Positions 61,023 through 64,000 of a DNA stretch of 64,000 nt are shown piece by piece. Source of the stretch: an uncultured Clostridia bacterium (GTDB lineage Bacteria > Bacillota > Clostridia > TANB77 > CAG-508); NCBI GenBank assembly GCA_949745595.1, contig CATJWN010000070.1, positions 120,542 to 184,541 of the forward strand. The letters run 5' to 3'. Every line of letters begins with the position of its first letter. Within the stretch, counting starts at the first letter, position 1. The notes under the pieces are model-generated. The model saw only the letters and a list, made by a program, of their open reading frames with translations. It did not search any database and was not told the origin of the DNA. The position numbers and the translations under genes are program-made.

Positions 61023-62984
61023 ATGTTAATTGATAATAATACGCTAAAAAGAATGCATACTGAAATTAAAACTAACTTAACTTTAGATGAATATATATAT
61101 AAGTCTAGATTATTAGACAAGTTTATAGATATGTGTATAAATTATGATAGAAATAATATAAATGAAAAACTATGTTCAAAATTTGAAGAGTATCAAAATG
61201 ATATTGAGCAAATTAAAGACGAATTTGATAGGAAAAGCTATGAAGGCAATTATTTCTACTTTAGAAATATTGGAAAGATAGATGCATTTATAAAAGTCAT
61301 ATATATTATAACAAAAAGAGAATATTCTGAAGAGTGGTACAAAAATTTAATTGATTTAAAAATATTAGAACCAATAGATTATGAAGAACTTGCTATAGAA
61401 GGAGTAAATGACATAGATAACCTCTTCTCAAAATTCAAAGAAATACTTAAAGAGGGAAAAGAAAAAGAAGAAGTCAGTGAAATTGTAGCTAAATTAGGTA
61501 CAGGTACATATAAAAATTACATACCATTTTTATATAGTTATTTTATTATAAATAATGACGTTATCTGTAAACAAAGTGAGGAAGCAGAACTAGACAATAC
61601 TTTATATAATAAATATCTAAATAAAATATTTATTTCTATTTTAGAAATTGTACTATCACAGGAAGATTTAATTAATAAATATTTCATAAATAAAAATATA
61701 AATATAAAGAAATACTTAGAAAACATAACAAATTCTTATATAGAATTTAAACAAACCAATGATATAATAACATATATTCCCGCAAGCGTATACAATACCA
61801 GAGATTTAAGAAGCATGAATACTTTTGCAGAAAGCGCATACTTACCGCAATCATTTACAGAAATTATTGAGAACGAAAATCTACATAAAATAAGACTTAC
61901 TGGATATGCTGGAGTAGGTAAAACAACGACATTGAAATATTTGCAAAATTTAGATGCAGAAAAATATCTTGACAAAATTGATAAGGAAGGATTAGCATTT
62001 TATGACGACAACGAAAAAATTCCAGTATTAATTGGGTTAATTGATGTTAAGGAAAAGAAGCCATTTAAAGATATAATTTTAGAAAATTTAGGACTAAGAA
62101 TTAGCAATGAAAATAAAGATCTTTTAAATTATATGATAAGAAAAAATAAGATAAGTTTATATATTGACGGAATTGATGAGATTAAATTTGATATTACAAA
62201 TGTAGTGGAACATAACGATGCAAAAAGAGCATTTATATCAGAAGTGCAGGCAATGTTATTAAGTCCTGAATTCAATAATATAAATATTATAATAACAGAC
62301 AGAGATAGTAATAGAAACAGTATTACTTTAAATGCGGACGAATACACAATATCAGGATTGACTATACAAGATGTTTGCAAATTTGTTGAACAAAACACAG
62401 TTGACTTATCTAATTTAAATGAAGAACAGAAAAAGCAAGCAGAAGATAAGATAAATAATATAAAAAATAGGTTATTTTCTACTCAAAATAATGACTTAAA
62501 GTATAGTGAAGAGGCTATAGAAAAATACGCTTTTGGTATTGATAATATAAAACCATTGTTTTTGCGTCAACTTCTTACTATACTATATGATCAATCACCA
62601 AATGAACCTTTACCAGATAAAAAGGATTTAAATATCAAATACTTAGATACTTTAATTGAGAGAGAAATTAAACAAAAAGAGAATAAACTTGCAAAATATA
62701 TAGTAGGGTCATTACAAAAAATGATTGAGCAAAATGGGAGCGAATTTCCACAAGGAGAGTATAAAGTACTTTCAGCATTTTTTGAATATTTTAATTTAGA
62801 GGATACAAAGGAGCAATTACAGAAGGATAATTTAAATCCAGACACTAGAGCATTATTAAATTTAATAATAAGAATGGGCATAATGGTTCGTGTAGATGCT
62901 CAAAATTATGATTTTAAATATAACAGTTATATAGATAAATTTATGCAGAATAAGGATTTACTAGACAGCTTTTTAGAAAACTAA
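61023..62984 (+). CDS. NACHT-type STAND P-loop NTPase (654 aa)
   Basis: Walker A LTGYAGVGKTTTLKYL at residue ~285. Walker B hhhhDGhDE (ISLYIDGIDEI). N- and C-terminal flanking domains of unknown function. Very AT-rich. Confidence 0.7.
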   Translation: MLIDNNTLKRMHTEIKTNLTLDEYIYKSRLLDKFIDMCINYDRNNINEKLCSKFEEYQNDIEQIKDEFDRKSYEGNYFYFRNIGKIDAFIKVIYIITKREYSEEWYKNLIDLKILEPIDYEELAIEGVNDIDNLFSKFKEILKEGKEKEEVSEIVAKLGTGTYKNYIPFLYSYFIINNDVICKQSEEAELDNTLYNKYLNKIFISILEIVLSQEDLINKYFINKNINIKKYLENITNSYIEFKQTNDIITYIPASVYNTRDLRSMNTFAESAYLPQSFTEIIENENLHKIRLTGYAGVGKTTTLKYLQNLDAEKYLDKIDKEGLAFYDDNEKIPVLIGLIDVKEKKPFKDIILENLGLRISNENKDLLNYMIRKNKISLYIDGIDEIKFDITNVVEHNDAKRAFISEVQAMLLSPEFNNINIIITDRDSNRNSITLNADEYTISGLTIQDVCKFVEQNTVDLSNLNEEQKKQAEDKINNIKNRLFSTQNNDLKYSEEAIEKYAFGIDNIKPLFLRQLLTILYDQSPNEPLPDKKDLNIKYLDTLIEREIKQKENKLAKYIVGSLQKMIEQNGSEFPQGEYKVLSAFFEYFNLEDTKEQLQKDNLNPDTRALLNLIIRMGIMVRVDAQNYDFKYNSYIDKFMQNKDLLDSFLEN

Positions 62985-63005
62985 CTTATTTTTTTGGGAG
63001 GAAGT

Positions 63006-64000
63006 ATGGGAACAGAAAGAATTGAATATACCGATAATGAAAGAAAAAAACTAAAAAATATAATAGAATCTGTTTTTTGTAAAATGGAAGAGAATGATAA
63101 AAAATCTCTTGAAGAAATCCAAAAAGATGTTGATGTATTTTTTATGTCTATGGAAATTCTTCAAGATGAAGCTATAATTAATGATATTGATAAATTGGAT
63201 AATCTTCAAAAAAAGTTAAATGAAATAGAAAGTGATGTAGAAGAAAGCCTAACATTTGAGCATATAAAGAAACTTCCTTTAAAAGTAAAACACATAATGT
63301 CTAAAATTACAAAAGGGAATAAAGTAATAGGCGAAGATGGGTATATTGGTGACGCTAATTTTTTAGAAGGATGTTTACAATATATACGTTTTTTAGATGA
63401 TTATAAAAAAACAGAAAACAATCTTAATTTAGAAGACATGAAATTAGCAAAATTATATAAAGATTTGCAGGTATTGGGTACTCCATATACGCATTTTTTA
63501 AATGATTATAAAAAAACAAATAACAAATATATAGGTGACAGTGAAGCTAAGGCTAAATATAAAGAAAAATATGCAGATAGGTATAAAAATACTCCTCAAG
63601 ATTTGTATGATAAACTATTTCAGCCCAAATATATTCAATTGACTGATTCTGATCACCCTGAGCAAACAATGAAGATGTATCCAGCATTAATGCCATATAT
63701 ACAAGCATATATTTTTAGAAACGAATGGAGTCATAGAGGCGATTTCCAAGAGGCTAGTGCAAGAGAGCATGTGGAAGCCATTTTGTTTACTTGCGTTGAA
63801 TGTATGAGTTTAGTTGCGAACAAGGTAAAAGATAAATATGAAATGATTCATTTTAAGGATATATTTAAAAATTATATTTTAAATATAATTAAAGAATATG
63901 AAACTAATATGCATCATTTAGTAGATGGAAAATTTAATGATGAACAATATTATTTGCCTTTTAATTGTGAATTTGCAGTACCTAAAGGCGAAGAAAAATA
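63006..64000 (+). CDS. hypothetical protein, partner of the NACHT NTPase (3' end beyond window)
   Basis: ATG at 63006 after GGGAGGAAG; open through the end of the window (>330 aa); translationally coupled spacing to the upstream NTPase. Confidence 0.5.
   Translation, partial: MGTERIEYTDNERKKLKNIIESVFCKMEENDKKSLEEIQKDVDVFFMSMEILQDEAIINDIDKLDNLQKKLNEIESDVEESLTFEHIKKLPLKVKHIMSKITKGNKVIGEDGYIGDANFLEGCLQYIRFLDDYKKTENNLNLEDMKLAKLYKDLQVLGTPYTHFLNDYKKTNNKYIGDSEAKAKYKEKYADRYKNTPQDLYDKLFQPKYIQLTDSDHPEQTMKMYPALMPYIQAYIFRNEWSHRGDFQEASAREHVEAILFTCVECMSLVANKVKDKYEMIHFKDIFKNYILNIIKEYETNMHHLVDGKFNDEQYYLPFNCEFAVPKGEEK

Follow-up and report, generated by a model that had tools for sequence, protein, structure and literature searches.

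Two paralogous NACHT-like NTPases, one with a predicted HEPN RNase domain, and a giant third partner form a candidate NLR-like defence cassette in gut Clostridia

To our knowledge, immunity of the nucleotide-binding leucine-rich repeat (NLR) type has so far been described in bacteria as a matter of single-chain receptors, in which effector, nucleoside triphosphatase (NTPase) and sensor are held together. Eukaryotes also have paired or helper NLRs, such as NAIP-NLRC4 and the sensor/helper NLR pairs of plants. Here we describe a cassette of three co-oriented genes, named A, B and C, from an uncultured Clostridia bacterium, of which all of A and the start of B lie in the window, i.e. the stretch of 64,000 nucleotides (nt) of contig CATJWN010000070.1 that was analysed. 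On balance, and with no large measure of confidence, we favour reading A-B-C as an NLR-like conflict or anti-phage system based on NTPases of the STAND class (signal transduction ATPases with numerous domains), with B as the ribonuclease (RNase) executor; it probably represents a new form of NLR-like defence made up of three genes.

Several described systems come close to this arrangement. The Avs (AVAST) proteins combine a STAND NTPase with an N-terminal nuclease-type effector, as is predicted also for B, and are presumed to be activated by oligomerisation when a phage protein is sensed, much as in the mechanism proposed below, but their C-terminal TPR-like sensor of at least 400 amino acids (aa) is part of the same chain (PMC13581612), whereas A and B have none and the separate, giant C may replace it. 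No PADLOC Avs model matches A, B or their relatives, and the survey of sensors in that work left aside STAND clades without a sensor of at least 400 aa (PMC13581612). The core of the bNACHT antiphage proteins (Kibby et al., bioRxiv 10.1101/2022.07.19.500537) is, as in A and B, a NACHT-clade NTPase; N-terminal enzymatic effectors including HEPN RNases, to be compared with that of B, are listed for the group, and the bNACHT01 clade (clade 14) has no repeats but only a short extension at the C-terminus, as A and B do. These proteins are reported as essentially single genes, whereas here a pair of NACHT proteins, one active and one dead in its effector, comes with a partner of 1,450-1,830 aa; furthermore, A and B stay below the Pfam NACHT threshold and their defence role is a prediction. 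PrrC/RloC (ABC-ATPase-HEPN) and the HEPN-STAND-TPR proteins (PMC3710099 Table 1) couple a HEPN Rx4-6H motif to a regulatory NTPase, like B, but each of them is a single chain, in some cases with TPR or S1 domains, and the HEPN-like domain of B, unlike these examples, matches no Pfam HEPN family. HEPN-NACHT proteins and short-tailed bNACHTs are already known kinds; no PADLOC (2023) model fits the conserved cassette, in which an active and a dead NACHT protein go together with a giant partner. The paired NLRs of eukaryotes offer an analogy, in that two paralogous NLR-type NTPases stand side by side and one of them keeps the executing domain, as would be the case for A and B, but homology does not go beyond the NTPase fold, there is no giant third partner, and the division of labour between A and B is read only from the loss of the Rx4H residues in A.

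Genes past the end of the window were read on L001, a 301-kb metagenome scaffold from ENA to which 12,978 nt of the window are 100% identical; metagenome assemblies with the labels SPEN21 and XIAO15 are the source of the matching contigs. Gene A, which an earlier note made from the sequence of the window had described as a frame of 654 aa starting at 61023, is real and encodes 653 aa. It has a ribosome-binding site (GGAGG, 61010-61014) 8 nt upstream of its ATG and, since stop codons are expected arithmetically at about 0.088 per codon at the local base composition, a frame of this length is not attainable by chance. The NACHT-like P-loop (GYAGVGKTTTLKYL, aa 294-307, from nt 61902) and the Walker B motif pointed out in the earlier note were both confirmed, and a sensor-1-like strand can be added to them (Table 1). 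B, which measures 771 aa in full (L001 11984-14299), carries a NACHT-like NTPase of its own beyond the window end, with Walker A GYAGMGKTT (aa 421-429), Walker B VYFDGLNEI and sensor-1 IIVTDRD. The NACHT version of Walker B, as reportedly defined by Koonin and Aravind in 2000, reads hhhhD-G-h-[DN]-E, where the Mg-binding Asp is directly followed by a tiny residue and, a few positions on, by an acidic one. Comparing A 290-574 with B 417-681 by BLASTP gives 27% identity over 295 aa (E 3e-20) and, to judge from this alignment, the two are paralogous NACHT-clade NTPases.

Word-indexed homolog searches yielded just 7 relatives for A, 3 for B and 1 for C, and the rest came from HMMER, run in full with an A-family profile over 1.84 billion cluster representatives, which returned 1,014 relatives at E<=1e-3 (272 of them at 1e-10 and 56 at 1e-30). 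These are mostly 540-620 aa long, the typical member being a HEPN-NACHT protein of ~560 aa without C-terminal sensor repeats. Against Pfam NACHT, A reaches 16.1 bits (model positions 4-158 of 167) and B 18.9 bits (positions 3-162), both below the cut-off of 26.7, whereas 67 of 77 relatives match it at E<=1e-3 (best E 2.9e-11); NACHT membership (PF05729) thus holds at family level only and, as the motifs also fit, the view of A as a NACHT STAND NTPase stands. In an alignment of 124 sequences, A clade included, every member keeps the G, G and K of Walker A, the D and E of Walker B and the R of sensor 1, and the Walker B G and N are nearly invariant across the family. Hence, both A and B are predicted to be active NTPases.

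Both proteins end about 190 aa past the NTPase core with a conserved tail (RExxEK...LGIL...YxF) common to all relatives, which by its sequence would be helical and winged-helix-like and is no repeat sensor domain. The C-terminal domain of ~250 aa without motifs that had been ascribed to A is therefore shorter than was thought and, being family-wide and motif-bearing, not a separate sensor. Longer relatives (866-1,165 aa) were considered as possible fusions with C, and their C-terminal extensions show no similarity to it. One relative, P0139 (1,033 aa), has a C-terminal FGE-sulfatase domain (Pfam E 8e-41); sensors of FGE-sulfatase type are reported for bacterial NACHT/STAND proteins, so members of this NTPase clade can also bear a sensor in the same chain. 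Another, P0108 (1,165 aa), lies within a defence-island-like stretch (L103 1-19498) together with an AAA_11/AAA_12 helicase, a PIN_4 protein, a DolB/PDC-M37B-like AAA ATPase, a small radical-SAM protein and a CARF-adenosine deaminase.

The N-terminal part of B is where an effector is predicted. HEPN RNases, metal-independent enzymes built as an up-down bundle of four helices with the motif closing the third, are recognised by an Rx4-6H motif with N, D or H following the R, plus an upstream Ex3[KR] (PMC3710099, Anantharaman et al. 2013), and N-terminal HEPN domains fused to bacterial STAND/NACHT NTPases have been described (PMC3710099; bioRxiv 10.1101/2022.07.19.500537). Four B-like proteins sharing ~30% identity have in common an invariant HPE, R238-N239-x3-H243, H255, T262 and E265. 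In most of the 150 best family matches RNxxxH precedes Walker A by 100-125 aa, its three columns holding R in 103, N in 114 and H in 109 members of the 124-sequence alignment; among the 94 motif-bearing members, 86 (91%) have the upstream Glu and 75 (80%) a K or R at +4. This pattern suggests that the N-terminal domain of B is a HEPN RNase effector, the only effector predicted in the cassette.

Concerning variation in B, a 106-nt deletion (L001 12751-12856, gene B nt 768-873) is present with the same junction in L003 (ERZ28621271) and L005 (ERZ14651183). It shifts the frame just past the RNxxxH/H255 region and truncates the protein at 256 aa in these two independent assemblies, B being therefore dispensable. 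Phase variation, which split B and C genes in L002, L003 and L007 might have indicated, was ruled out for these three scaffolds, where the splits are N-gaps apart from the deletion; the check covered them and left out L109 and L112.

A differs from B in this very region. A-like proteins align to the HEPN-like region but lack its R and H, and in a rough neighbour-joining tree they form one clade nested among motif-bearing lineages, from which A appears to be a copy whose HEPN-like effector is dead; the regions flanking the NTPase core of A match no Pfam family. The partner that the earlier note had placed downstream of A has thus become a second, paralogous NACHT NTPase with the only predicted effector, and A the effector-dead member of the pair. 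Co-transcription with a partner, also claimed there, stands; the module nevertheless consists of three genes and not two.

The third gene, C, starts 20 nt after B and encodes 1,525 aa without transmembrane segments, i.e. a soluble protein, with no match in Pfam or PADLOC. Its C-terminal ~900 aa are made of four modules (residues 858, 1114, 1355 and 1503), each ending in [YFW][ILV]Y.N[ST]-h-[KR]...[ED]F ("YIYxNS"); two of them align to each other by hhalign with 70% probability. A-like, B-like and giant proteins form triads in at least 8 metagenomic lineages of gut Clostridia, in the orders A-B-C, A-C-B and C-A-B and with spacers of 12-30 nt, the A-like proteins matching A best and the B-like proteins matching B best. 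The triads are those of the window species (A-B-C), the sister species L014/L015 (identity of 78% for A, 63% for B and 70% for C, and 78-88% aa for the flanks), L010-13 and L119 (550 - 1,451 - 571/579 aa), L096 (555 - 1,512 - 581 aa), L114/L115 (565 - 600 - 1,829 aa), L116 (A-like, B-like and a giant of at least 1,404 aa), L117/L118 (567 - 582 - 1,516 aa) and L120 (giant - 546 - 604 aa), and L009 holds a partial one. Where complete, the giants have 1,404-1,829 aa, and all are mutually homologous. More distant members of the family occur as two-gene units, in which a large protein without Pfam match (1,329, 882, 851, 720 and at least 469 aa) is encoded directly after a HEPN-NACHT protein of ~560 aa, the two genes overlapping or standing a short distance apart; the C-type module is also present in two of these partners, and one triad giant matches a two-gene partner at E 2e-5. 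By this comparison, a single HEPN-NACHT protein with a large partner seems to be the simpler ancestral form. Since A and B have no sensor of Avs/NLR type and a large protein is invariably encoded next to them, the strongest candidate for such a sensor or scaffold, working in trans, is C.

This architecture bears directly on a first alternative, that A-B is a two-gene Avs-like module in which A, a STAND protein with novel domains on either side, would act as both sensor and effector and the next gene would encode an accessory partner. The STAND core of A, its Pfam-less flanks and the tight linkage of A and B would agree with it, but it is already contradicted on architecture and we hold it to be very improbable: A has in place of a C-terminal sensor the ~190-aa tail of all its relatives, its N-terminal domain is catalytically degenerate, the effector motif is found in its partner, a NACHT NTPase in its own right, a third gene is always with the pair, and Avs models give no match. 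Of the two ideas put forward in the earlier note, NLR-like immunity remains the best reading, whereas an Avs-like architecture, with neither a repeat sensor nor an Avs or other PADLOC match, does not.

The constancy of the cassette within the species and its synteny in the sister species are less easily reconciled with defence. All 24 contigs of the species that were read and have the identical MBL-fold (metallo-beta-lactamase) neighbour also have the cassette, without any absence allele or the presence/absence polymorphism usual for defence islands, and cassette and flanks are syntenic in the sister species. The G+C content at third codon positions (GC3) is 0.16-0.18 in A, B and C and 0.12-0.27 in the neighbours. 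The operon as a whole is AT-rich, as had been noticed, its GC being 24.0% where the window has 29.5% (sd 2.2% among 2-kb segments), although the most AT-rich gene is the nearby ABC exporter; as GC3 is that of the neighbours, the low GC follows from an amino-acid composition rich in K, N, I, E and Y and is not a foreign codon signature. With native GC3, conserved synteny, a full count of 24 and no known defence gene within 10 kb, the horizontally acquired island proposed for this neighbourhood finds no support. The same observations are what one would look for if A-B-C were a housekeeping or developmental STAND module of spore-forming Clostridia, controlling RNA turnover, stress or sporulation through the RNase of B and having no immune role. 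Such a role would also be in line with the lack of known defence neighbours at the L114 and L118 loci, with the sporulation genes that adjoin two triad loci, spoIIIA (L009) and cotJB/cotJC (L010), and with the fact that only a minority of STAND clades, 198 of 589, were classed as defence (PMC13581612). A core function would not, however, be so patchy: a scan of 185,579 species representatives with the A-family alignment gave 599 pattern matches and confirmed no A-clade relative; the family is not at the loci of the nearest relatives found by a SecA scan, these being just ~70%-identical metagenome-assembled genomes of uncultured Clostridia without synteny, and hence no test of cassette presence or absence; and the genomic position of the cassette differs in every lineage, the synteny with the sister species apart. 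Further points against it are the truncating allele of B in two samples, the overwhelming use of bacterial HEPN domains as toxins of conflict systems (PMC3710099), and two relatives in defence-like company, one whose large partner lies two genes away from an AbiD gene and another that adjoins a CARF-adenosine deaminase (PADLOC E 1e-145) and a DolB-like ATPase. Altogether we regard such a housekeeping or developmental module as unlikely.

The case for NLR-like defence is indirect. It is made up of the effector logic, in which a HEPN RNase sits on a switch NTPase (an architecture already described for defence, as HEPN fused to STAND/NACHT), the sporadic distribution and changing genomic positions of the cassette, the truncating allele of B, the AbiD and CARF-deaminase genes beside two relatives, and the fast divergence of B and C, which between the sister species (63% and 70%) exceeds that of the flanks (78-88%). 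Besides the fixation and synteny given above and the missing defence neighbours at three loci, several results weigh against this reading. No PADLOC (2023) model of known defence systems fits A, B or C: B gives only PDC-M01A, at E 1e-4 and over the P-loop, and the relatives give only weak mad8 or PDC-S60 matches. A scan of viral contigs found no relative. With regard to the HEPN domain, B has Q125 where Ex3[KR] calls for K or R, members of the N-terminal profile match no HEPN Pfam family at E<=10 (nor do any of the 77 full-length relatives at E<=1e-3), and profile searches of the PDB with the N-terminal B profile and the full B-type profile gave no relatives. The AlphaFold2 model of the N-terminal domain of B (3-sequence alignment) is all-helical but unusable, with a predicted local distance difference test score (pLDDT) of 38.6, and that of full-length A (7 sequences, pLDDT 44.6) is equally so; Foldseek of the latter against the PDB gave nothing significant, the weak matches being to NLRC4, NRC2 and ORC (best E 6e-3, TM-score <= 0.2). 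Lacking a profile match and a usable model, the HEPN call rests on the motifs and their conservation, not on fold, and the roles given to A and C are pure inference.

Toxin biology suggests yet another origin, a selfish, addiction or toxin-antitoxin-like cassette, or a decaying one, in which the HEPN toxin B would be restrained by A and/or C and kept by post-segregational killing. HEPN toxins with cognate inhibitors are common (PMC3710099), the HEPN-dead paralog could serve as an antitoxin-like inhibitor, and a frameshift allele of B does exist; against this, three long intact frames (653, 771 and 1,525 aa) have been maintained between species (63-78% identity), the active sites of the two NTPases are conserved in full although an addiction module would need less machinery, no mobile-element genes flank the cassette and none was found on viral contigs. 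We consider this origin quite improbable.

Returning to NLR-like defence, the active sites of HEPN domains are usually composite across a dimer, as in RNase L, Csm6 and Cas13, and a possible mechanism can be outlined. The trigger, most likely a phage protein or a phage-induced change, would work through C, which would give in trans the large sensor or scaffold surface found C-terminally in single-chain Avs and NLR proteins. It would set off NTP-dependent oligomerisation of A and B, and this would bring the HEPN domains of B together; once paired, they would cleave RNA and growth would be arrested. A, NTPase-competent but HEPN-dead, would be the regulatory or sensing subunit, one option being that it keeps the HEPN domain of B inactive in a heterodimer until activation. 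In its most specific form, which we put forward tentatively and with more doubt than belief, this is a paired NLR, a hetero-oligomer of effector-dead A and HEPN-armed B, with the recognition surface supplied in trans by C.

Concerning the limits of the operon, the second gene begins at 63006 and runs off the window as previously reported, its spacer to A being 21 and not 22 nt. The promoter and terminator context of its own that had been claimed for the pair exists as sequence, in a weaker form. The hairpin upstream of A (folding free energy -17.9 kcal/mol, z -5.5, 0 of 200 shuffles folding as well) is a probable boundary of the upstream transcription unit. The -35 hexamer of the candidate promoter agrees with TTGACA at only 3 of 6 positions, and the promoter is unproven because such sites occur in the local AT-rich DNA at chance level (92 found, 93 expected). 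On the other side, a perfect promoter (TTGACA-17-TATAAT, L001 18904-18932) stands between C and the next gene. It precedes three small genes (L001 18966-20572) with no Pfam family in any: D (219 aa) has transmembrane-like segments near both ends, E (194 aa) has them N-terminally, and F (114 aa) shows the CxxC...CxxC of a zinc ribbon. They were considered as members of the system and ruled out, both by this sigma-70 promoter of their own and because the sister species has a RibD_C gene after C instead, from which it follows that the transcription unit is A-B-C; nor do they resemble the 221-aa gene following the L010 triad.

Table 1. Features of the cassette and its upstream border, in window positions
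Feature	Position	Strand	Remarks
Hairpin, 12-bp stem	60929..60957	+	after the upstream CAP/Big_2 gene; without U-tract
Candidate promoter, TTGCAT-18-TATAAT	60968..60997	+	sequence; weak -35
Gene A	61023..62984	+	653-aa NACHT-like STAND NTPase; degenerate HEPN-like N-terminal domain without Rx4H residues
A Walker A, GYAGVGKT	61902..61925	+	aa 294-301; G, G, K invariant in 124 relatives
A Walker B, LYIDGIDEI	62157..62183	+	NACHT-type D-G-h-D-E; aa 379-387; D, E invariant in 124 relatives
A sensor-1-like strand, IIITDRD	62286..62306	+	aa 422-428; R invariant in 124 relatives
B ribosome-binding site, GGGAGG	62996..63001	+	inside the 21-nt A-B spacer
Gene B, first 331 of 771 codons	63006..64000	+	window part corresponds to the HEPN-like N-terminal domain
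B Ex3[KR] motif, E121-Q125	63366..63380	+	E kept; Q in place of K/R
B H217-P218-E219	63654..63662	+	invariant among four B-like proteins of triad loci
B R238-N239-E-W-S-H243, Rx4H	63717..63734	+	predicted HEPN RNase active site

The neighbours listed in the earlier note, an ABC exporter, an MBL-fold protein, a RibD_C (DHFR-like) protein and a CAP/Big_2 surface protein, are all present. The exporter gene (55929-57548) has 21.4% GC and a GC3 of 0.12, and the CAP/Big_2 protein (58987-60918) contains a long Asn/Thr-rich low-complexity linker at about aa 365-440. The end of the MBL-fold gene is overlapped by 11 nt by a 49-aa open reading frame (58052-58201, L001 7030-7179), probably a real small gene since the sister species has it too, with 88% of its amino acids identical. 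In the window the RibD_C gene (58188-58745) precedes the CAP gene, and in the sister species it comes after C (L014 13758-14171), which indicates that either this gene or the CAP-A-B-C block has moved. GC skew is ~0 in the 2-kb segments 46001-48000 and 60001-62000, against 0.2-0.3 elsewhere.

If NLR-like defence is the right reading of A-B-C, sensor, regulator and executor would be split over three genes, a prokaryotic counterpart of NAIP/NLRC4 or of the sensor/helper NLRs of plants, and there would be a family of about 1,000 short HEPN-NACHT proteins, all with separately encoded large partners. The clades without long sensors that the STAND sensor survey (PMC13581612) omitted may include the A/B family. 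B offers a testable predicted HEPN RNase with clear point mutants, R238 and H243. Should the cassette be immune, an inactivated paralog could be kept as a regulatory subunit, as in the paired NLRs of eukaryotes, and it would add a sizeable family of gut Clostridia (1,014 cluster representatives at E<=1e-3) matched by no PADLOC (2023) model.

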